From the sequence record MK562503: DNA of 43,630 bases; one strand, 5' to 3'. Source of the DNA: Shigella phage Buco. The notes under the pieces were generated by a model. That model did not search any database and was not told where the DNA came from. It saw only the letters and a list, made by a program, of their open reading frames with translations. Position 1 is the stretch's first letter, and each line of letters opens with the position of its first letter. Positions 9,569 to 21,332 of the stretch are shown piece after piece. Made by a program: the position numbers and the translations under genes.

Positions 9569-9727
9569 ATGTTACGAGCAAAAGATTTAACCATCGAGGA
9601 TGCCCAGGTTATTGGGTGGTACAGGGGCAAGCCCAGCTACATAGACCTGGCTAGGCTGACAGCATTTCACCTGGAGAGCTCGCACCTGATTGCTCTCCGG
9701 GCCATCGACAAAGCGCGGAGGGCTTGA
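9569..9727 (+). CDS. Hypothetical protein (52 aa)
   Basis: ATG preceded by gcggaggt; stop overlaps the start of the HNH gene. Confidence 0.45.
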   Translation: MLRAKDLTIEDAQVIGWYRGKPSYIDLARLTAFHLESSHLIALRAIDKARRA

Positions 9728-10161
9728 TGGAAGATTGCATTGACCACGGCCAATTGGGCGGGGTTGGCGGGTACGGAAGAGTGCGCATGGGTGGCCGGGT
9801 TACTGGTGCCCACCGCAGAGCTTATTGTGAGGCTAACGGTGTTTCGTTGGACGATATAAAGGGGAAGGTTGTGCGCCACCTTTGCGACAACCCACGGTGC
9901 ATTAATGCGGAGCATCTCGCCTTAGGCACCGCAAGCGACAACATGCAAGACCGCAACCGCGGAGTTAATAATCTGCTTGGAGAAAGGAACCCATCAGCCA
10001 AGTTAACAGCCTCGGATGTTGTGGCGATTAGGGCGGCATATAAATCAGGAGAGACTCAAGTATCTATAGCGCGCCGCCTGGGTTTACGTCAGGGCTACAT
10101 CTCAAAAATTATAACGGGGAGAATCTGGAATGAGCAGCAGCATTCTAATCACAGATTATGA
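9727..10161 (+). CDS. Free-standing HNH homing endonuclease with C-terminal helix-turn-helix
   Basis: HNH signature RHLCDNPRCINAEHLALGTASDNMQD, then a DNA-binding-like helical region (SAKLTASDVVAIRAAYKSGETQVSIARRLG). Confidence 0.75.
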   Translation: MEDCIDHGQLGGVGGYGRVRMGGRVTGAHRRAYCEANGVSLDDIKGKVVRHLCDNPRCINAEHLALGTASDNMQDRNRGVNNLLGERNPSAKLTASDVVAIRAAYKSGETQVSIARRLGLRQGYISKIITGRIWNEQQHSNHRL

Positions 10162-12505
10162 AACAGAAAATCATCCATACTATGGAGGGGTAGCTTCCCC
10201 ATACTGTCCTGACAATTACATCGTAGAATCCGCTTGGCGTATTGACCGCACAAATGATGATGGTACGGTCAACGTCGGGGACGTTGGGAGCGTTCGCTAC
10301 AATAGTCGTGAACAGTTCCTCGCTGCACCACCCTCTGAGTGGCTACCGATACCAAGCGATTGCTGGTTAATAGTGGCCCATAACGCGGCTTACGAAATCA
10401 GTTGGTTTTTATCCTTTGCCCGTAAAGAATTTGAGGACTTCTTAAAGAGGGGTGGGCGTGTCTTTGACACAATGCACGGAGAGTACATTGCCACGGACTT
10501 CCAGAGTATGTATCCGAGCTTGGATGAGACGGCTCCTAAGTATGGTGGTACGCACAAGGTAGACGGGGTAAAGATTCTGTGGGAACAGGGTGTGCTCACC
10601 TCGCAGATTGACCCGATGCTATTGCATGACTACCTGGTGAACGGGGATATCCCGAACACCGCGCTGTGCTTCTACGGCCAGTGTGCTATCTTTGCTGAGC
10701 GCGGGCAGATGCAAATGGTCTGGGAGCGTATGGACGCTGTGCTGGCCTGGGCCTACTGTGAGTTCTTCGGATTGTATGTGAACATGCCGGTAGCCCGGGC
10801 GAACCAGGCGGAGCAGGAGCAGCGCATTCAGGAGCTGAAAGAGGAGCTGGGTAAGTACCTGCCGGAACTGCCGGAGACGTTCGAGTTCAACTGGGGTAGT
10901 AACTTCCATATGTCAGCGCTGGTATACGGCGGACCTATCCGGTACAAGCGCAAGGTCCCGTATGACCCGCCGCAGTATGTAAAAGCCGACTATTATAAGC
11001 TCAATAACGGAGAGCTTATAGAGGTAGATGATTGGGACATAGAGGCGTTGGATACTCGGCTAGTGCAGGAGGGCCTGTACCGCGAGGTTTATAGGGCAGG
11101 TAAGAACAAGGGTCGGCCTAAAGTCTTCCGCGCCGACACCGAGGAGGAGAAGCTTAAGTGGGACGACGCTATCTACACCTTCCCGGGCATCGTCAAGATA
11201 GCAGAGTTGCCAGAGCACATCCGGGAGAAGTACAGCGACCGTGGCGAGTTCAGAGGGGCCCAGACACTACCCGACGGCAGTCCGATATACAGTACCAGCG
11301 GGGACGCCATGAACGGCCTGGCGGCCCAGGGGCACGCCTTCGCTAAGTTGGTGAACGAGCTGGCCGGGTTAGAGAAAGACACCGGCACCTACTACCTACG
11401 CACGGAGTACAACAAAGATGGCTCAGTCAAGAAAGTGTCCGGAATGCTCCAGTACGTTATCCCTCAGTCAGGAGACGGGAGCGGCATTATCCATCACAGA
11501 CTCAACACTTGCAGCACTGTCACTGGACGTCTCTCTGCTTCTAACCCAAATCTCCAGAACCTCCCACGAGACGGCACGAGTCGAGTTAAACAAATGTTTA
11601 CTAGCCGTTTCGGCGACGAGGGGCGGATTACAGAAGTCGACTACTCGGCTCTTGAAGTTGTTATGTCCTGTGTGCACACCGGGGACCTCAAGCTCCTAGG
11701 TCTGCTGCTGGATGGTACGGACATGCACTGTTACCGGTTAGCCTTTAAGGAGGGCAAGACCTATGATGAAGTGTACCACCTCTGTCACTCGGATGAGGTT
11801 CCGGTTGAGGTCCATAAACTTTGGAAAGCCATGCGTACCGAGATTAAACCTCCTAGCTTTGCTGCTCAGTACGGCGCTACGGCTAAAGGTATCGCATTCG
11901 CTACCGGATGTACCGTGGAGTATGCCCAGTCATTCCTTGATAATGAAGCCGCACTATTCCCTACCACCATTGGCTTTCGTGATGTAGTCCGGGAGGAAGT
12001 AGAGCGGACCGGGGCAGAGGGGCCAATGTACCGAGAACAGGGTGATGATGGGCAGTGGAGACTGTACCGCATCGGGCACTGGCGTAGCCCCGCCGGTACA
12101 CGCTACAGCTTCCGTCAGAAGCTGCAATGGAAAGCCCCGCCGGGAGGTGGCCGCAAGGTTCAGGTAATGGACTACAAGGGCACAGAGATTGCAAACTACT
12201 GGTGCCAGGGGGAGGCGTTCTTCCTGATGCTGGTGGCCGCCGGGCAGGTTATGCGGGCAATGGTGCAGCGCGACTGGTTCGATGGGCAGGTGTGTCTGAT
12301 TACGAACGTGCACGATGCGTTGTATCTGGACAGCGCCAATCCGGAGGTAGGCCGGGAAGCGAGCCTGTTGGTTAAGCAGTGTATGGAGGATGCGCCTAAA
12401 CGTATCCATGCCCTGTGGCCGGACTACGGCATCATTGGGCAGGTCCCGTTCCCGGCGGAAGCTGAGATGGGTTTGAGCATGTACAGTAAGGAGAAGATTC
12501 AATGA
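10130..12505 (+). CDS. Family A DNA polymerase with N-terminal 3'-5' exonuclease domain
   Basis: 791 aa; exo motif ILITDYETE, then DYSALEVV, RTEIKPPSFAAQYG and VHDALYLD polymerase motifs; ggggaga upstream. Confidence 0.9.
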   Translation: MSSSILITDYETENHPYYGGVASPYCPDNYIVESAWRIDRTNDDGTVNVGDVGSVRYNSREQFLAAPPSEWLPIPSDCWLIVAHNAAYEISWFLSFARKEFEDFLKRGGRVFDTMHGEYIATDFQSMYPSLDETAPKYGGTHKVDGVKILWEQGVLTSQIDPMLLHDYLVNGDIPNTALCFYGQCAIFAERGQMQMVWERMDAVLAWAYCEFFGLYVNMPVARANQAEQEQRIQELKEELGKYLPELPETFEFNWGSNFHMSALVYGGPIRYKRKVPYDPPQYVKADYYKLNNGELIEVDDWDIEALDTRLVQEGLYREVYRAGKNKGRPKVFRADTEEEKLKWDDAIYTFPGIVKIAELPEHIREKYSDRGEFRGAQTLPDGSPIYSTSGDAMNGLAAQGHAFAKLVNELAGLEKDTGTYYLRTEYNKDGSVKKVSGMLQYVIPQSGDGSGIIHHRLNTCSTVTGRLSASNPNLQNLPRDGTSRVKQMFTSRFGDEGRITEVDYSALEVVMSCVHTGDLKLLGLLLDGTDMHCYRLAFKEGKTYDEVYHLCHSDEVPVEVHKLWKAMRTEIKPPSFAAQYGATAKGIAFATGCTVEYAQSFLDNEAALFPTTIGFRDVVREEVERTGAEGPMYREQGDDGQWRLYRIGHWRSPAGTRYSFRQKLQWKAPPGGGRKVQVMDYKGTEIANYWCQGEAFFLMLVAAGQVMRAMVQRDWFDGQVCLITNVHDALYLDSANPEVGREASLLVKQCMEDAPKRIHALWPDYGIIGQVPFPAEAEMGLSMYSKEKIQ

Positions 12506-13073: not shown

Positions 13074-13095
13074 ATCTGTGAAACAGGCCCTAATA

Positions 13096-13115
13096 GAATT
13101 CCACGGTATAGTACG
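13096..13115 (+). promoter_or_regulatory. Phage-promoter-like motif P2 (ttcCACGGTATAGtacgac)
   Basis: Shares the CACGGTATAG core (13102..13111) with P1, P3 and P4; followed by aggaga at 13120..13125 and a TTG start at 13132. Confidence 0.5.
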
Positions 13116-13131
13116 ACACAGGAGAACTACC

Positions 13132-14118
13132 TTGGCAAAGACCAGTCTAATTAAGTTGTGGACCAAAGAGCAGCACCAGGCAATCCTGGGTCGCTATTTA
13201 AACAATGAACGGGCAGCAGAAGAGTACAACAGCACCTACGTTGTACACGGCTGCGGCAACCCGGTATCCAGGCAGCTGGTGCGCTACTGGCGCAGCATCT
13301 TCATCGACAATGGCGGCAGCAAAGCGAAGGCTAATCATGGCTTACAAGAAGCGCGCAAACTCATTCAGCCAAGTCCCACTGATGATATTGGAGCTACTCT
13401 GGTTCCTGATGTTTGTCATCGGATTCTCGTCGTTGGGGATTTGCATGCTCCTTATACCCACGCTGATGCTCTTGAGTTTCTAAAGTCCGTCCGGGATGAA
13501 TACTGCCCGGACATGGTTATTCAGGTGGGTGACGAAACGGACGGACACGCAATCAGCTTCCATGACTCCGACCCGAACCTGGACAGCGCCGGGGTGGAGC
13601 TGGAGAAGGCTAAGGTAATTCTGGAGGACGTGCATGCGCTCTTCCCGAATCTACTCGTGTGCGACTCAAATCACGGGAGTCTTGTGTATCGTCGCGCCAA
13701 GGCTCACGGTCTACCGGTACAATTCATCAAGAAGTACCGGGATATTCTGTTTCCTGAGCACGGGGCACCGTCATGGAGTTGGGCGGATGCGTGGGTGCTC
13801 AACACGCCTCTTGGTCCGGTACGCTTCCAGCACCAAGTGTCAGGCGACTTTATGCTTAATGCGTCGCATGAGCGGACCAGTCTGGTTCTTGGTCACGAGC
13901 ACGGGCGATTCGAGGTACAGTACGCCGCTTCCAGCACCGCGCTGTATTTTGGCGCTTACGCAGGGTGCCTTATTGACCGCAAATCGCTTGCATTCGCATA
14001 CGGTAAGTTAACCCGTAAGAAACCAATCCTGGGCGTGATGGTTATCACTGAGGGTTGTCCACAATTAATTCCCATGCTACTCGACGATTCCGGTAGGTGG
14101 GTTGGGAGGGCTAAGTAA
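13132..14118 (+). CDS. Calcineurin-like metallophosphoesterase (possible DNA repair exonuclease or phosphatase)
   Basis: Motifs GDLHAPY, GDETDGH, CDSNHGS, GHEHG. No in-frame ATG precedes the first motif, so the TTG at 13132 is taken as start (alternative GTG at 13078). Confidence 0.7.
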   Translation: MAKTSLIKLWTKEQHQAILGRYLNNERAAEEYNSTYVVHGCGNPVSRQLVRYWRSIFIDNGGSKAKANHGLQEARKLIQPSPTDDIGATLVPDVCHRILVVGDLHAPYTHADALEFLKSVRDEYCPDMVIQVGDETDGHAISFHDSDPNLDSAGVELEKAKVILEDVHALFPNLLVCDSNHGSLVYRRAKAHGLPVQFIKKYRDILFPEHGAPSWSWADAWVLNTPLGPVRFQHQVSGDFMLNASHERTSLVLGHEHGRFEVQYAASSTALYFGAYAGCLIDRKSLAFAYGKLTRKKPILGVMVITEGCPQLIPMLLDDSGRWVGRAK

Positions 14119-15903: not shown

Positions 15904-16084
15904 ACTATCTATTCTTTTTGCTGCTCCAGCAGGGCTGCTTATGGCCACCGGTATTGTTCTACTGGGCCTGGGCGGCCTGATTGCTGGGCAAGGTTTCTTA
16001 CGCCCCACTCGTATCCTTTCAGAAGAATTCCGAGATGCCTTGGTCACAGCCAAGGCGCGCCTCCTGGCGAGTAGGCGCAAATGA
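15893..16084 (+). CDS. Small membrane protein (63 aa)
   Basis: ATG at 15893 after caggag; hydrophobic core LSILFAAPAGLLMATGIVLLGLGGLIAG. Confidence 0.45.
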   Translation: MRSKLSILFAAPAGLLMATGIVLLGLGGLIAGQGFLRPTRILSEEFRDALVTAKARLLASRRK

Positions 16085-17025
16085 TTATCCGGGGGCTGGA
16101 CCTAGCGAATCTGGGGGAACAGCTAGCCCCCGCCAACCCCGGTAAGGTATTGCTGCTGGACGGGGACTTCCTGGTGTACAAGGCAGCGGCAACTGTCAAG
16201 ACCCTGCCTACCGCTATCCGGCGCTTCTACCAGCTGGTGCTGGAGGAGATGTTTCTGGTTGGGGTGCAAGAGTGCTTCGTGTATCTGACTCCCACTGGGT
16301 GTGCTAAGTGCAACCGCTGGCATCTGCCGACGGTGAAGCCCTACCAGGGACAGCGGGCTAATCGCGTGGAGCTGCCCCTTAAGGGACCTCTGAAAACGCA
16401 CCTATTGAATAACCCGGACGAGTACAGCAGCCAGAATATTCAGGTAGTCGGGAGCATGTTCTATGAAGCTGATGACCTGATAGTAATGGACTCCTACGCT
16501 TTCAAGGAGCGCTGCATCGTTAGCTCCGGGGATAAGGACCTATGGTTAAGTCCCTGGGCCAGGATGAATGCGGAGACCGGAGAGGTCTGGGCACCGCTGG
16601 AGGACTCCTACGGCTGGATTGAGTGGGATGAGACCAAGGCTATGCCTGTGCGTGGGCACGGTCTGAAGTTCTTCTGGTGGCAAATGCTGGCTGGGGATGA
16701 GGCAGATAACATCAAAGGCATCCGTACGCTGCATGGGCGGCTCTGTGGCAAGGCTACGGCCTTCCAGGCTATCAACCCTATGGCTACAGCGGACGAGGCC
16801 GCAGAGCTCGTTATAGGAGCTTACGCAGCAATCAATCAAGACCCCTTAGCTGAGGCTGAGGCACTGTTTCTGAGACGGCATGAGCGGGACTCTGGTTATG
16901 AGTACATTATGTCGGTGCTGGCTAATCCTGCTTACAGGGACTGGCTCACCAGTCTCAGGGATTATCACACACAGCACATTCAGTATGTGCAGGAGCTTTC
17001 GCTTTATGGCATCGAAGAAACGTAG
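16081..17025 (+). CDS. 5'-3' exonuclease (FEN/T7 gene 6-like)
   Basis: N-terminal LLDGDFLVYKAA, acidic GDKDL, and GDEADNIKGI helix-hairpin-helix-like motif. Confidence 0.75.
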   Translation: MIIRGLDLANLGEQLAPANPGKVLLLDGDFLVYKAAATVKTLPTAIRRFYQLVLEEMFLVGVQECFVYLTPTGCAKCNRWHLPTVKPYQGQRANRVELPLKGPLKTHLLNNPDEYSSQNIQVVGSMFYEADDLIVMDSYAFKERCIVSSGDKDLWLSPWARMNAETGEVWAPLEDSYGWIEWDETKAMPVRGHGLKFFWWQMLAGDEADNIKGIRTLHGRLCGKATAFQAINPMATADEAAELVIGAYAAINQDPLAEAEALFLRRHERDSGYEYIMSVLANPAYRDWLTSLRDYHTQHIQYVQELSLYGIEET

Positions 17026-17212
17026 TGCAAAGGAGCTGCGGCTCCTGGCCCTGGAACTCTACTTTACGGAGAAGCATGATGAACTCGAATTGGTTATGTC
17101 TGAAATGGCTGAACGGTTCCCAAGAACACATCGAAGCACGGTTAAAGAGCTGGATTCTATCATTCACGAACAACATGACCTGGATTGCGTAGGGGAGATT
17201 AAACTATGCTGA
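17006..17212 (+). CDS. Hypothetical protein (68 aa)
   Basis: Internal ATG of ORF 16880..17212 preceded by aggagc; overlaps the end of the exonuclease gene. Confidence 0.4.
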   Translation: MASKKRSAKELRLLALELYFTEKHDELELVMSEMAERFPRTHRSTVKELDSIIHEQHDLDCVGEIKLC

Positions 17213-17457
17213 TTAAGCACGGCGACACCTATCGAGTAGATATTGTACGTCCTTACATAGCAAAACCTAATGCACCTGGAATCTCCTATGCAGGTGACTT
17301 TCCTTACTGGTGGCCGCACTCCTGGTCTGTAAACTATGGCGGATATGTACTCTTCTTTGCAGCCAAACCTACGCGTAAGCAAATTCGTAAGATGGTGAGA
17401 TGGGTGCGGGACAGTTTACCATATGATAAACATCCGGAGGATGCGCCGTGGCATTAA
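17206..17457 (+). CDS. Hypothetical protein (83 aa)
   Basis: ORF-track entry; ggggaga upstream. Confidence 0.5.
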   Translation: MLIKHGDTYRVDIVRPYIAKPNAPGISYAGDFPYWWPHSWSVNYGGYVLFFAAKPTRKQIRKMVRWVRDSLPYDKHPEDAPWH

Positions 17458-17879
17458 GGAAGGTTACCCGGGGTCAAATCCGGGCCGTAGCAATGCGCCT
17501 GGCAAAGGAGCAGGGTGGGGTGTGCCCCCTCTGCTTTGAGCCTTTGGACTTCTCAATCAAGGGGGTGACTGGTGATTCAGTTGTCGTCGACCACTGCCAT
17601 ATCACGGGCAGAATCCGAGGTGCTCTGCACCGCTCATGTAATGGCGGGGAGGGTAAAGTGGCCTCCGCCGCTGGGCGGTGGGTGGTGGGTAGTATGCAGT
17701 CTACTGCTGCTATTGCTACTGCGCTACGTCGTATCGCTGACTACCTAGACAAGGAACCGTCGGACCTGGTATACTATACGCATAAAACGCCGGAAGAAGC
17801 TGCTGCCGCATTGAAGATGCGCGCGCGCCGCCGCCGAGTCCAACGTAAGGCAAGAGAGGTTATCAAGAGTGTTCAATAA
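17448..17879 (+). CDS. Endonuclease VII-family resolvase
   Basis: CPLC...DHCHITGRIRGALHRSCNGGEG matches the T4 endonuclease VII zinc/His-Me signature; GTG start after ggagga. Confidence 0.75.
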   Translation: MALRKVTRGQIRAVAMRLAKEQGGVCPLCFEPLDFSIKGVTGDSVVVDHCHITGRIRGALHRSCNGGEGKVASAAGRWVVGSMQSTAAIATALRRIADYLDKEPSDLVYYTHKTPEEAAAALKMRARRRRVQRKAREVIKSVQ

Positions 17880-18354
17880 ACCTATCATAGTATTTGACCT
17901 GGATGGTACGCTGGCAGACGGGCGTCATCGCCTGCATCTTCTGCCAAAGAAGGATTACCACCTTACCGAATCCTGGACGGAGTTTAATCTCGCTGCGGTG
18001 GATGACCTCCCTATTAGGGATAACATCGTGCTTTGTAATGCACTGTACCAGCATTACTACATCATTATCCTAACCGGTCGCAGCGATGTTGCTGGGCAAG
18101 TTACTCGCCAGTGGCTGCAAAAACACGGTGTGATGTATAGTGAGTTGATTATGCGTAAGCAGACGGATAATCGGAAGGATGTACAGATTAAAGAGGAAGA
18201 GCTGCGTAGAATTGGATTAGACCAGATTCTGTGCTGCTTCGACGACTTACCGCACGTAGCCTATCACATGCGTGGCCTGGGACTGACCTGTCATCTGGTC
18301 ACCCACTACGAAGAGCTGCGTACTGACCTAGTGTCACATGGAGAAGATAAATGA
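17869..18354 (+). CDS. HAD-superfamily phosphatase (nucleotidase or 3'-phosphatase-like)
   Basis: N-terminal FDLDGTL motif and later aspartates; 161 aa. Confidence 0.6.
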   Translation: MFNKPIIVFDLDGTLADGRHRLHLLPKKDYHLTESWTEFNLAAVDDLPIRDNIVLCNALYQHYYIIILTGRSDVAGQVTRQWLQKHGVMYSELIMRKQTDNRKDVQIKEEELRRIGLDQILCCFDDLPHVAYHMRGLGLTCHLVTHYEELRTDLVSHGEDK

Positions 18355-18821
18355 AAGCTATCTGTATAGAGCCAGTTCGCAATCTCACCAAAGGTGCGGT
18401 GTATGATATCCGTCCTGTAGATGCAACGTATGTAAAATTAATTATGGATGATGGCTCAGAGAGAGAGTTGTTTGCCCGCCGCTTCCAACCTTTCACTGAG
18501 GCGGTAGCGTCTCCGCAGCCAGATCTGAAGTACGACCAAGGCAAACCTCGCATGTCCTTGCTGTTAAGTGGCTGCCCGCTGGCCCTGGAGGCGGTGGGGC
18601 AGGTGCTGACCTTCGGCGCGCAGAAGTACGAGGCCCATTCCTGGCAGACGGTGGACAACGGACGGGAGCGCTACGAGAGCGCACTCATGCGGCATCTGCT
18701 CGCTATCGGTAAAGGTGAGGACAGAGATAGTGAATCCGGCCTGCATCACCTGGCGCACGCCGCCTGCAATGCCCTGTTTATTCTGGAACTTGAACTTCGT
18801 AAGCAGCAAGCAAAACAATAA
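18351..18821 (+). CDS. Hypothetical protein, possible nucleotide pyrophosphohydrolase-like helical domain
   Basis: Pattern KYDQGKPRMSLL...FGAQKYEAHSWQ...RYESALMRHLLA...GLHHLAHAACNALFILE; family assignment is from memory and tentative. Confidence 0.5.
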   Translation: MKAICIEPVRNLTKGAVYDIRPVDATYVKLIMDDGSERELFARRFQPFTEAVASPQPDLKYDQGKPRMSLLLSGCPLALEAVGQVLTFGAQKYEAHSWQTVDNGRERYESALMRHLLAIGKGEDRDSESGLHHLAHAACNALFILELELRKQQAKQ

Positions 18822-18826
18822 CTATT

Positions 18827-18835
18827 TGATATAAT
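18827..18835 (+). promoter_or_regulatory. Extended -10 element (TGaTATAAT) just upstream of the RNAP start
   Basis: Perfect TATAAT at 18830..18835 preceded by TG at 18827..18828; no good -35 hexamer. Confidence 0.25.
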
Positions 18836-18851
18836 GGGAGAATATGCGCCT

Positions 18852-21332
18852 ATGACTAGCGCCCCGCTGTTCACTTATCAGTTCCACGGCACTGACGTTA
18901 CAGAAGCACAGGTACAGCGCCAGGCTCAGCTGGAGCAGGACTACCGCACCCGCGGCCTTGACCGCTCCCGGAGACTGGTACGCGAAGCTATTGAGTCCGG
19001 CAGAGTATCGACGCTACCGGCGGCACAGCGTCTGATTGCTGCCGCTTATGATACGGTAGCGCTCCAGCTGGATCGTATCAAAGCAGAGAAGGCCCCGGGG
19101 GTCGGTGGCCGCTACCGCGCGCTGCTTCGACAGGTGCCGACCACGGTGCTTGCCGCGCTGTCCCTGACTAAGTGCATTGACCTCATGGCGTGTGGGAACG
19201 GGCACAGCACCAACAGCTCTGCGCAGTCGGTTATGTCCGCACTGGGCCGACTGGTGGAATCTGAGCTGCTGAGCATTCAGCTGAAGGCCGTGGCTCCGGC
19301 GTACATGAACAGGGTGCACGAGTATCTGAAAGAGCGCCACACTAAGAACTCGTCGCATATTCTCCAGACCTACCGGGCGTCAGCAGAGAACGTACACTTC
19401 AACCACGAGAACTGGAGCAATGCCCAGTGCATCTCCGTTGGCCGGTTGCTGATGCAGGCAGTATACAGCACTGGCATGTTCCAGTGGCGCAAGGGTTCTG
19501 ATGCTAGCCAGCTTACGTACCTGGAACCCTCTGAGGAGGTGCAGGGGGTGCTAACGGACCTGGTACAGAATGCAGACTCAGTGACATACAAGCCGCCGAT
19601 GCTGGTGCCGCCGCTGGCGCATGAGACAATCTTCTCTGGCGGGTACATTACGGACATTGACCGGCGCGGTACTTACAAGAACACCCAAATAACGCGCAGG
19701 CAGCTCCGTGACGTGGCGAACAGCTTCAAGGAAGCCCAGGGTATTAAAGACGCTCTGAACCGCGCACAGAGCGTCCCATACCGTATAAACAAGGGTATGC
19801 TGGAACTGGTGCGAGAGGCTCAGCGCCTCGGGGTGGCTGTAGGTATGCCCAGCACTAACCCAGCACCGAAGCCGCAGTGGTATCTGGACGGGGTGCCAAA
19901 GGAGACCTACAGTGAGCGCCAGCTTGACGACTTCAATGAGTGGAAGCTCATGATGCGCGAGTGGTACAACGAGGACCGTACCCGTATCAGCCAGCTCCGC
20001 CAAGTGGCCCGTACCCTGCAAATGTCTGAGGAGTTTAAAGATGAGCCAGCCCTGTACTTCCCGACCTGTGTGGACTGGCGATATCGCGTCTACTTCAAAT
20101 CCTCCCTGCATCCCCAGGGTTCTGATTTGCAGAAAGCCCTGCTGTGTTTTGGGCGCGGAAAGGCCCTTGGCGCACGCGGGTTATTCTGGCTTAAGGTACA
20201 CGTCGCTACATGCTTTGGTTATGACAAAGCCTTATTCGAGCAGCGTGCAGCTTGGGCTGATGCAAACTATGCAATCATTGAACAGGTTGCAGATAACCCC
20301 TTTGATTCTGAGTCTTTTAAACTTGCCGATTCGCCGTGGTGTTTCCTTGCGGCATGTATCGACCTGGTTAATGCTACCCGCTCTGGCAGCCCGGAGCAGT
20401 ATGTATCGCACATCCCAGTCGCTATGGACGCTACAAACTCTGGTGGGCAGCACTTCTCCGGAATGCTCCGAGACCCGGTAGGCGGACGCTTAACGAACCT
20501 GTTCTGGGAAGGCAACGAGGAGAAGGCGGACCTGTACATGGACGTGAAGCAGCGTACAGACTCCAAGGTTATCATGGATTTAGCTAATCCAGACTTCGTG
20601 GTACAGGCGCACTACTGGATGGAGAATAGCATCACCCGTACCATGACCAAGCGCCCGAGCATGACCTACTTCTACAGCGCCACGGTGCGCTCCTGTAGCG
20701 ACTACATCGTTACCGGCGCTAAGGGGGAGGGCTATGAGGGCACGGAGGAATACAGTCTCTGGAAGCTGGCAGGTTATCTGGCCCCGCGTATGCGCAACGC
20801 TATCGAGGAGGCCAACCCGGCAGCGGCGGCAGCTATGCATTACTTGCAGCAGGTGGCCCGACGGGTCCCGGTGAAGCTGCATCTGCAATGGAAAACCCCG
20901 TTAGGTGGGCTCGTTATCAATCGTTATACCGAGTCTAAGGAGACCCGTGTCCGCATCGACAGCATGAACCTGACGTCTCTGCTGGCATACAACCGGGACT
21001 ACGAAATTAATAACAGGAAGAAGGCCGCTTCCGGCATCGCTCCGAACTTTGTGCATAGTCTGGATGGTACGCATCTTATGATGGTTATCACTGCATTTAG
21101 CGGCGATATCGTGCCTATTCACGACTCGTTGGCGACACATGCTTGTGACGTTGATGAGATGCACCGGGTAATCCGTGAGCAGTTCGTGAAGCTGTATACC
21201 GAGAACGACCCTCTGCAAACCGTAGCTGATGCAGCAGTAGCAGTAGGCGCTGACCTATCAGGTATCGAAATGCCGGAACATGGCAGACTGGACCTGCGGC
21301 AAGTGCTTGATTCGCCCTTCTTTTTCTGCTAA
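18852..21332 (+). CDS. Single-subunit DNA-dependent RNA polymerase (T7 RNAP-like)
   Basis: About 826 aa; catalytic motifs PVAMDATNSGGQHFSGMLRD and IHDSLATHA. Start taken at the ATG with gggagaa upstream; ORF opens at 18834. Confidence 0.9.
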   Translation: MTSAPLFTYQFHGTDVTEAQVQRQAQLEQDYRTRGLDRSRRLVREAIESGRVSTLPAAQRLIAAAYDTVALQLDRIKAEKAPGVGGRYRALLRQVPTTVLAALSLTKCIDLMACGNGHSTNSSAQSVMSALGRLVESELLSIQLKAVAPAYMNRVHEYLKERHTKNSSHILQTYRASAENVHFNHENWSNAQCISVGRLLMQAVYSTGMFQWRKGSDASQLTYLEPSEEVQGVLTDLVQNADSVTYKPPMLVPPLAHETIFSGGYITDIDRRGTYKNTQITRRQLRDVANSFKEAQGIKDALNRAQSVPYRINKGMLELVREAQRLGVAVGMPSTNPAPKPQWYLDGVPKETYSERQLDDFNEWKLMMREWYNEDRTRISQLRQVARTLQMSEEFKDEPALYFPTCVDWRYRVYFKSSLHPQGSDLQKALLCFGRGKALGARGLFWLKVHVATCFGYDKALFEQRAAWADANYAIIEQVADNPFDSESFKLADSPWCFLAACIDLVNATRSGSPEQYVSHIPVAMDATNSGGQHFSGMLRDPVGGRLTNLFWEGNEEKADLYMDVKQRTDSKVIMDLANPDFVVQAHYWMENSITRTMTKRPSMTYFYSATVRSCSDYIVTGAKGEGYEGTEEYSLWKLAGYLAPRMRNAIEEANPAAAAAMHYLQQVARRVPVKLHLQWKTPLGGLVINRYTESKETRVRIDSMNLTSLLAYNRDYEINNRKKAASGIAPNFVHSLDGTHLMMVITAFSGDIVPIHDSLATHACDVDEMHRVIREQFVKLYTENDPLQTVADAAVAVGADLSGIEMPEHGRLDLRQVLDSPFFFC

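Follow-up and report, generated by a model that had tools for sequence, protein, structure and literature searches.

A PNKP-type HAD phosphatase and a DUF5664 protein encoded in tandem before the RNA polymerase gene in Shigella phage Buco: a possible two-step route of deoxynucleotide disposal

What might a phosphatase of the HAD superfamily and a protein of the DUF5664 family do together, encoded by overlapping genes immediately ahead of the RNA polymerase (RNAP) gene of Shigella phage Buco (sequence record MK562503)? The window analyzed here is the whole 43,630-bp genome of this phage. Every gene of any size lies on the + strand, and the gene order, from primase, helicase and DNA polymerase through exonuclease and endonuclease VII to RNAP, portal and beyond, is that of a phiKMV/KP34-like member of the Autographiviridae. 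A first-pass annotation, made from the letters of the genome, had drawn attention to two open reading frames (ORFs) with overlapping stop and start codons just before the RNAP gene; the coordinates are exact, the overlap is the tetranucleotide ATGA, and the RNAP gene begins 13 nt past the second frame. Both proteins belong to already known families. ORF2 is 100% identical to the public protein 'gp32 [Shigella phage Buco]', and ORF1 is probably gp31. We lean, with slightly better than even confidence, towards the view that the paired enzymes degrade deoxynucleotides stepwise and so edit or sanitize the nucleotide pool of a phage with ordinary DNA.

Families and folds of the two proteins

Residues 6-145 of the 161-residue ORF1 product match the Pfam family PF25109 (HAD_PNKP) with an E-value of 4.9e-16 (59.6 bits, cut-off 27.6), and the protein matches phrog_415 at 4e-58. 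The reading frame opens with MFNKPIIVFDLDGTL... and contains the motif FDLDGTL at residues 9-15. In the HMMER alignment, D10, D12 and T14 coincide with the DxDxT motif I of T4 Pnkp (D165/D167), and the correspondence extends to R21 (R176 in T4 Pnkp), T69/R71 (S211/R213), D104 (D254), K108 (K258) and D125/D126 (D277/D278). The residues essential for the phosphatase of T4 Pnkp are D165, D167, R176, R213, D254, D277 and D278. Across an alignment of 119 homologues, the mapped catalytic residues of ORF1 are invariant or nearly so.

An AlphaFold2 (AF2) model of ORF1 has a predicted local distance difference test score (pLDDT) of 91.7, and its top Foldseek matches in the PDB are Pnkp1 (4xru/4xrp) and T4 Pnkp (5uj0/2ia5), with E-values of 5e-9 to 1e-6. 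The phosphatase domain of Pnkp1 in 4xru is matched at 5e-9, and the isolated 3'-phosphatase of T4 Pnkp in 5uj0 at 1.8e-8 with a TM-score of 0.77. By profile, residues and fold, ORF1 is a genuine PNKP-type HAD phosphatase. The initial assignment to the HAD fold, made from the FDLDGTL motif, is borne out by the PF25109 match, the catalytic residues and the fold, and can be narrowed to the PNKP 3'-phosphatase family. ORF1 would act as an Asp-nucleophile HAD phosphomonoesterase of this family with no kinase domain attached. The best phage protein matches come from Pectobacterium and Dickeya phages.

No kinase domain was found in ORF1: Pfam returned no kinase match, no Walker A motif was seen on reading the protein, and the phosphatase fills the 161 residues. 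The alignment of ORF1 with phrog_505 is confined to positions 161-291 of 295, in the C-terminal half that holds the phosphatase. The public entry 'polynucleotide kinase [Shigella phage Buco]' (P0345), which has the length of ORF1, therefore bears a misnomer, as the 5'-kinase domain is absent. Kinase-less HAD phosphatases elsewhere carry the same label, which appears to be a propagated error. The phosphatase of T4 Pnkp is specific for 3'-phosphates, which it removes from polynucleotide ends and from 3'-deoxynucleoside monophosphates (3'-dNMPs).

ORF2 matches PF18909 (DUF5664, 'dATP/dGTP diphosphohydrolase, N-terminal'; dGTP_diPhyd_N) over residues 56-154 at 2.2e-34 (117.8 bits, cut-off 27) and phrog_801, 'dATP/dGTP pyrophosphohydrolase', at 1.8e-44. 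The Pfam name derives from an Acinetobacter phage fusion protein in which DUF5664 is joined to a MazZ-type DUF550 domain; since the source protein also carries DUF550, the name alone is no proof that DUF5664 is catalytic. That DUF5664 by itself is catalytic is settled by the stand-alone protein of Arthrobacter phage Wayne (ALY10775.1, 'DUF5664-1'), described in 2026, which cleaves dATP, dUTP and dGTP to dNMP and pyrophosphate (PPi), with a kcat of 0.48 s-1 and a Km of 20 uM on dATP, and does not hydrolyze ribonucleoside triphosphates (PMC12884076).

Residues that may take part in this chemistry are strongly conserved. In 150 diverse DUF5664 homologues, G89, K92, Y93, Y108, A111, R114, H115 and D126 (Buco numbering) are invariant, and K60, D62, K65, W98, R107, G122, E128, H133 and H136 are kept in at least 90%. 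Alignment A1, in which the Wayne enzyme is represented, keeps G89, K92, Y93, W98, Y108, A111, R114, H115, G122, E123, D126 and H133 invariant. The conserved positions form a plausible metal-, triphosphate- and base-binding set. The idea that the second protein resembles a pyrophosphohydrolase, at first a weak assignment, has thus gained firm ground in the PF18909 match and in the invariant residues common to gp32 and the characterized Wayne enzyme, and a Pfam profile search places both proteins (PF25109 and PF18909) above the curated thresholds. We propose that gp32 is a metal-dependent pyrophosphohydrolase of deoxynucleoside triphosphates (dNTPs) of the DUF5664 family, yielding dNMP and PPi. 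Because the characterized stand-alone member acts on dATP, dUTP and dGTP, gp32 probably prefers these substrates too.

The AF2 model of ORF2 (pLDDT 87.5 overall) contains a very confident helical bundle at residues 68-155, with DUF5664 helices at 68-74, 76-92, 104-120 and 133-155 (pLDDT about 98). It is preceded by beta strands at 17-22, 27-31 and 37-41 (pLDDT 60-85). The N-terminal 55 residues show no conservation among relatives (alignments A1 and A2), are absent from the 104-aa homologue of Klebsiella phage SKP1 (Drulisvirus), and gave weak Foldseek matches to Tudor/SH3/L2-like barrels (E > 0.3). Across DUF5664 proteins in general, the N-terminal appendage is hypervariable and ranges in length from 0 to about 200 aa. 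The family is large, with 20,767 clusters at 50% identity (E <= 1e-3). Neither a single-sequence nor a 150-sequence profile search found a solved DUF5664 structure; matches to PARP1 and hemolysin II structures were weak and are set aside as chance. Two proteins about 80% identical to gp32 (P0022 and P0033) are deposited as partial 'Cutibacterium acnes' proteins on contigs of about 500 bp, probably reflecting phage contamination of the Cutibacterium acnes assemblies. NCBIfam returned nothing informative for ORF1, ORF2 or the metallophosphoesterase (MPE) encoded further upstream.

Linkage of HAD and DUF5664 by fusion and gene order

The earlier proposal that the two genes form a coupled nucleotide-processing pair receives independent support from recurrent fusions of HAD and DUF5664 genes. 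A PNKP-like HAD stands at the N-terminus of DUF5664 in P0247, P0242 and P0378. The first of these is the fusion most similar to the Buco pair and also precedes an RNAP gene; P0242 and P0378 are 46% identical, and P0378 occurs on 4 contigs from 3 assemblies. At the C-terminus of DUF5664, an NT5C-like 5'(3')-deoxyribonucleotidase HAD is found (P0392-P0401 and P0407) in proteins that form at least nine 90%-identity clusters; P0400 is present on 18 contigs, and P0401 and P0407 score above the NT5C gathering threshold. These DUF5664-NT5C-like fusions measure about 265-310 aa and come from metagenomic contigs and a cultured marine phage, Cellulophaga phage Calle_1, whose gp72 (L095 2863-3792) has this architecture.

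A profile of the N-terminal fusion HADs matches the Buco HAD at 6e-14, and the NT5C-like profile gives no match to it even at E <= 10. Since the NT5C-like profile misses the Buco HAD, DUF5664 has been joined independently to two HAD lineages. Fusions in two lineages and two domain orders are a classic mark of enzymes working on a shared stream of substrates. Our literature searches showed that the recurrent HAD-DUF5664 linkage is not discussed in the paper on DUF5664 enzymes (PMC12884076).

Two further observations concern the fusion proteins. Some of the contigs that encode them (L088-L090; P0392-P0401, P0407) have giant-virus-like neighbours, including a TFIIS zinc ribbon and an SNF2 helicase, and wide intergenic spacers. 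In a 233-aa metagenomic protein (P0386), a PNKP-like HAD of the P0378 type is fused to PF11753 (DUF3310/SaV-like) in place of DUF5664; the possibility that this domain is a distant relative of DUF5664 was rejected, as hhalign gave a probability of 0.4%.

Gene order links the two families in Buco's closest relatives. We sampled 80 viral loci encoding DUF5664, ran three HAD hidden Markov models (PNKP-like, fusion-type and NT5C-like) over their six-frame ORFs, and sought HAD genes within 3.5 kb. A HAD gene lies directly upstream of the DUF5664 gene, abutting or overlapping it, in 17 of the 80, which are the closest relatives of Buco; the NT5C-like and other HAD profiles added no loci to these. 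Annotated phages with this order include Escherichia phage glasur (Bonnellvirus) and Klebsiella phage SKP1, in which comparable overlaps of 8 nt and 4 nt, respectively, are annotated.

The order appears to have outlasted an exchange of the HAD gene. With the copies in loci L010-L016 the Buco HAD shares 73-76% identity, although the RNAP of these loci is just 36-37% identical; with those in L017-L023, the loci with the closest RNAP (64-65%), it shares only about 55%. The latter also supply the closest exonuclease and endonuclease VII (64-81% with the RNAP; Buco 16081-17879 and 18834-21332). The Buco HAD gene has a G+C content of 48.4%, lower than the 54.1% of the whole genome. This mosaicism suggests that the HAD gene was replaced with its position preserved, and we count the retention of the HAD-DUF5664 order despite the apparent exchange in favour of coupling.

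The gene for the calcineurin-like MPE shows a related pattern. The order MPE-HAD-DUF5664 is found in L010-L016, and an MPE gene stands directly upstream of DUF5664, with no HAD, in L019, L024, L027, L029 and L030. In Buco the MPE gene is 3.7 kb from ORF1-ORF2. The Buco HAD and MPE are 70-78% identical to their counterparts in L010-L016, and the MPE may belong to the same functional neighbourhood as HAD-DUF5664. A search of the MPE against PDB sequences gave no significant match.

At the junction of the two Buco genes, the TGA stop of ORF1 (18352-18354) and the ATG start of ORF2 (18351-18353) share the ATGA overlap, and a GGAG sequence at 18340-18343 precedes the ORF2 start by 7 nt. A GAGAGG sequence stands 9 nt 5' of the GTG start of ORF1. 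The overlap and the internal Shine-Dalgarno sequence, both read from the DNA, imply co-transcription and probably translational coupling. Counts of promoters and terminators around ORF1-ORF2 are not above shuffled expectation, so no separate transcription unit can be claimed for the pair.

Table 1. Features of the Buco genome discussed in the text; aa, amino acids
Feature	Position	Strand	Description
ORF1	17869-18354	+	GTG start, 161 aa; stand-alone PNKP-type HAD phosphatase, probably gp31
ORF2	18351-18821	+	ATG start, 156 aa; variable N-terminal domain and DUF5664; gp32
ORF1/ORF2 junction	18340-18354	+	GGAG Shine-Dalgarno inside ORF1, ATGA stop/start overlap (read from sequence)
ORF2 N-terminal appendage	18351-18515 (aa 1-55)	+	small three-stranded beta domain (AF2 model)
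DUF5664 catalytic-domain candidate	18516-18818 (ORF2 aa 56-156)	+	PF18909; helical bundle in AF2 model
RNA polymerase gene	18834-21332	+	832-aa single-subunit RNAP; PF00940 1.3e-88
Endonuclease VII gene	17448-17879	+	upstream of ORF1, 11-nt overlap with ORF1
Calcineurin-like metallophosphoesterase gene	13078-14118	+	346 aa; phrog_221 5.8e-111; PF00149 4.8e-5

The 5'-3' exonuclease gene, identified in Pfam and PHROG scans, also lies upstream of ORF1. A megablast search of our phage collection, which did not hold Buco itself, gave a single match of 279 bp at 83% identity to Cronobacter phage Peggy, within the endonuclease VII gene; relatives were compared at the protein level instead. Elsewhere in the window, an HNH endonuclease ORF (9724-10161, +; PF13392 5.5e-10) shares about 30 nt with the start of the DNA polymerase gene (10130-12505, +), and the segment 3003-5971 (+) encodes a 652-aa early protein (phrog_6980) followed, with overlapping stop and start, by a predicted 336-aa peptidase (phrog_4191). 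Positions 1-16, at the left end of the genome, form a perfect palindrome, CCCGGGATATCCCGGG, which could belong to the genome terminus or have arisen artificially during assembly or cloning.

A two-step route and its alternatives

Family membership, conserved catalytic residues, gene order and recurrent fusions are the observations on which a joint pathway can be built. In the route we favour, ORF1 and gp32 would be expressed as middle (DNA-metabolism) genes, co-transcribed and probably translationally coupled. In a first step, gp32 would strip PPi from selected, possibly non-canonical dNTPs to give dNMP. In a second, the HAD enzyme would take the remaining phosphate, converting dNMP to deoxynucleoside (dN) and inorganic phosphate, and this removal would make the disposal of the dNTP irreversible. 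The pair would then be a two-enzyme equivalent of a dNTP triphosphohydrolase, sanitizing the pool during replication of a phage with ordinary DNA.

The two steps differ in standing. The first, dNTP to dNMP and PPi by gp32, is supported by the homology of gp32 to a characterized enzyme. The second, dNMP to dN, we infer from the fusions, especially those to deoxyribonucleotidase-type HADs. A HAD enzyme with a dNTP-cleaving partner has precedent in bacterial hosts, as PUA-Cal-HAD systems and the rarer MazG-HAD variants, whose MazG-like part is predicted, use two enzymes to degrade dNTPs stepwise (bioRxiv 10.64898/2026.01.15.699771). As to purpose, hydrolysis of dATP and dGTP by a phage with normal DNA seems wasteful; pool sanitation, by clearing dUTP or damaged or non-canonical purine dNTPs, is plausible. 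We infer both this purpose and the substrates of the two Buco proteins.

Several points weigh against the two-step route. The activities of the Buco pair are themselves predictions, and the second step needs a specificity undocumented for PNKP-type HADs, as DUF5664 gives 5'-dNMPs and the PNKP type is 3'-specific. The linkage between the families is also not obligate. HAD domains occur in only 2 of the 150 diverse DUF5664 representatives scanned, and the fusion closest to the Buco pair is known from a single contig. No HAD was found within 3.5 kb in 63 of the 80 DUF5664 loci. In the phage collection, HAD homologues are present in 1431 records and DUF5664 in 780, with unlike host distributions. 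In LUZ24-like and Vibrio phages, DUF5664 stands beside genes for SSB, exonuclease or structural proteins, and in others beside ligase, sliding clamp, ThyX, RusA and exonuclease genes. Furthermore, stop/start overlaps are the norm in the compact Buco genome, as between endonuclease VII and ORF1, so the overlap of ORF1 and ORF2 is by itself a weak sign of coupling.

The alternative with the best claim, which we nevertheless regard as rather unlikely, is that the two proteins have independent functions and are merely syntenic: the HAD would heal 3'-phosphate ends of DNA or RNA, and DUF5664 would be a house-cleaning dNTPase, for example a substitute for dUTPase. The nearest relatives of ORF1 in sequence and structure are T4 Pnkp and Capnocytophaga Pnkp1 of the Pnkp1/Rnl/Hen1 RNA-repair complex, every phosphatase-essential residue of the T4 enzyme is kept, and ORF1 sits among 5'-3' exonuclease and endonuclease VII genes. 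In relatives the HAD adjoins an MPE, the other classical type of end-healing phosphoesterase, and most DUF5664 genes have no HAD neighbour, nor do most of the HAD genes have a DUF5664 neighbour. The DUF5664 enzyme of Wayne has dUTPase activity (PMC12884076), and no homologue of the Wayne Dut fusion was found in Buco by tblastn. However, it is difficult to see why DUF5664 should have been fused independently to two HAD lineages, one of them of the 5'(3')-deoxyribonucleotidase type, if the enzymes had no substrate stream in common. In addition, no RNA ligase or polynucleotide kinase with which end healing and sealing could be completed was found among the scanned Buco ORFs, a set that took in only part of the small ones.

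A second alternative keeps the enzymology of the two-step route and changes its purpose: the pair would be a counter-defence module against nucleotide-derived immune molecules or their precursors. Candidate targets are the dITP of Kongming, the (d)ITP of RADAR, the m6-dAMP trigger of PUA-Cal-HAD, and the chain-terminating ddhNTPs of prokaryotic viperins, which poison T7-type RNAPs. We judge this reading improbable, although it can draw on recent findings. The 5'-dNMP phosphatase Dmp of phage T5 defeats Kongming by removing dAMP, the precursor of dITP (bioRxiv 10.1101/2024.12.20.629578), and PUA-Cal-HAD is triggered by m6-dAMP released in phage-induced breakdown of host DNA (bioRxiv 10.64898/2026.01.15.699771). 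For the suggestion in the first-pass annotation that the pair could degrade nucleotide-based signals, these findings supply a precedent. DUF5664 prefers purine dNTPs and dUTP (PMC12884076), so that dITP would be a plausible substrate. A DUF5664 gene lies directly 5' of the RNAP gene in about 35 phiKMV-like loci, and the surrounding genes vary by lineage (HAD, MPE or neither), a variability usual for accessory or conflict genes. On the other side, neither protein matched a PADLOC model, in a library of defence rather than anti-defence proteins, and the replication-module neighbours seen in other phages (ligase, sliding clamp, ThyX, exonuclease) fit ordinary metabolism equally well. The MPE likewise had no informative PADLOC match, and a literature search on anti-defence links of viperin or MazG returned nothing relevant. 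Equally doubtful, in our estimate, is the broader form of the idea, in which HAD-DUF5664, together with the MPE in relatives, would strip defence-related deoxynucleotides, among them ddhNTPs directed at the neighbouring RNAP, down to nucleosides and so mirror the dNTP-depleting effectors of the host. If it were true, the recurrent HAD-DUF5664 fusions would mark a widespread and so far unrecognized two-step 'nucleotide eraser'.

Biosynthesis of 2-aminoadenine (Z) DNA is suggested by the occurrence of active DUF5664 proteins in the Z-genome phages SH-Ab 15497 and Wayne (PMC12884076), and we consider a part for ORF1-ORF2 in such a pathway next to impossible. PurZ0, DmtZ-DutZ and DNA polymerase I of Wayne are unmatched across the 43.6-kb Buco genome (tblastn, best E 0.3-0.75), the replication genes of Buco are an ordinary primase, helicase and DNA polymerase in PHROG scans, and DUF5664 clusters (more than 20,000 at 50% identity) far outnumber Z-genome phages. 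Because PurZ, DutZ/DmtZ and a Wayne-type polymerase are unmatched, the Z-DNA context of the characterized enzymes does not apply to Buco.

That ORF2 is a T7 gp3.5-like lysozyme, an 'endolysin that inhibits RNA polymerase', is effectively refuted: this reading draws on database labels only (phrog_5033 at 2.7e-45, LUZ24 gp38 and Vibrio phage records), whereas PF18909 is the sole Pfam match, with no amidase, lysozyme or other peptidoglycan-hydrolase domain in ORF2, the AF2 model is a small helical bundle, and enzyme assays have shown one family member to be a dNTP pyrophosphohydrolase (PMC12884076). The 'endolysin; inhibits RNA polymerase' label looks to have been copied between records unsupported. 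'Endolysin' labels on DUF5664 are found at L004 3315-3818 (LUZ24 gp38) and L005 3276-3791, in phrog_5033 and phrog_2252, and in many Vibrio phages.

Two labels in wide use are put right by the analysis of this locus: the protein called 'polynucleotide kinase' is a phosphatase that lacks a kinase domain, and the one called 'endolysin; inhibits RNA polymerase' is a predicted dNTP pyrophosphohydrolase. The more useful result is that DUF5664, characterized only in Z-genome phages, is recurrently linked to HAD by adjacency and fusion, which provides a testable hypothesis for its role in ordinary phages, the two-step disposal of dNTP via dNMP to dN. Nucleotide pools and non-canonical nucleotides are central to the conflict between phages and their hosts, as in Kongming dITP signalling and PUA-Cal-HAD. 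The substrates of the pair could reveal either pool sanitation or a new anti-defence strategy in therapeutic phiKMV/KP34-like phages.

Comparison with known systems

The phosphatase is most readily compared with the 3'-phosphatase domain of T4 Pnkp and with Capnocytophaga Pnkp1, with which ORF1 shares the HAD fold, the DxDxT motif and the phosphatase-essential residues. In contrast to these enzymes, ORF1 has no 5'-kinase domain, and its conserved partner is a putative dNTP pyrophosphohydrolase.

For ORF2, the closest characterized parallel is the Wayne enzyme. Both proteins match PF18909 (3.5e-32 for Wayne, 2.2e-34 for Buco) and carry a C-terminal DUF5664 domain after a non-conserved extension. 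They are 46% identical over a 59-aa core and have the G/K/Y, W, Y, R/H, G-E, D, E and H residues in common. The N-terminal extensions are unrelated and differ in length, 97 aa in Wayne against 55 aa in Buco. The genomic settings differ as well: Wayne is a PurZ0 Z-genome siphovirus whose enzyme removes dATP and feeds dZTP synthesis, and its DUF5664 gene neighbours PurZ0 and DmtZ-DutZ, whereas that of Buco neighbours a HAD phosphatase. The Acinetobacter phage SH-Ab 15497 protein, which converts dATP and dGTP to dNMP and PPi (as cited in PMC12884076), has the same DUF5664 domain fused to DUF550, a domain that Pfam does not find in ORF2; because of this fusion, its activity cannot be assigned to DUF5664 alone.

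Dmp of phage T5 resembles the proposed second step in being a phage-encoded dNMP phosphatase that manipulates the supply of deoxynucleotides and in this way blocks immune signals made from nucleotides. It differs in acting alone and early in infection, and an immune role for the Buco pair is hypothetical. To our knowledge, Dmp lies outside the PNKP-type HAD family.

The host PUA-Calcineurin-CE-HAD and PUA-MazG-HAD effectors likewise contain both a HAD phosphatase and a second nucleotide phosphohydrolase, of calcineurin-like or MazG-like type, and the MPE-HAD-DUF5664 trio of Buco's relatives resembles PUA-Calcineurin-HAD in composition, a comparison at the superfamily level only. These effectors belong to bacteria, in which they assemble into filaments, sense through a PUA domain and abort infection, whereas the genes considered here are expressed by the phage itself and encode no PUA domain.

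A parallel to the pair as a whole in a cultured phage is Calle_1 gp72 (QQV89743.1, annotated '5' nucleotidase'). It differs from the Buco pair in being a single polypeptide with the reverse domain order and in having a 5'(3')-deoxyribonucleotidase HAD with the motif LDIDEVL, whose relationship to the Buco HAD is detectable only at the level of the superfamily. Like the Buco pair, it brings together DUF5664 and a HAD domain, and it is encoded inside a replication module.

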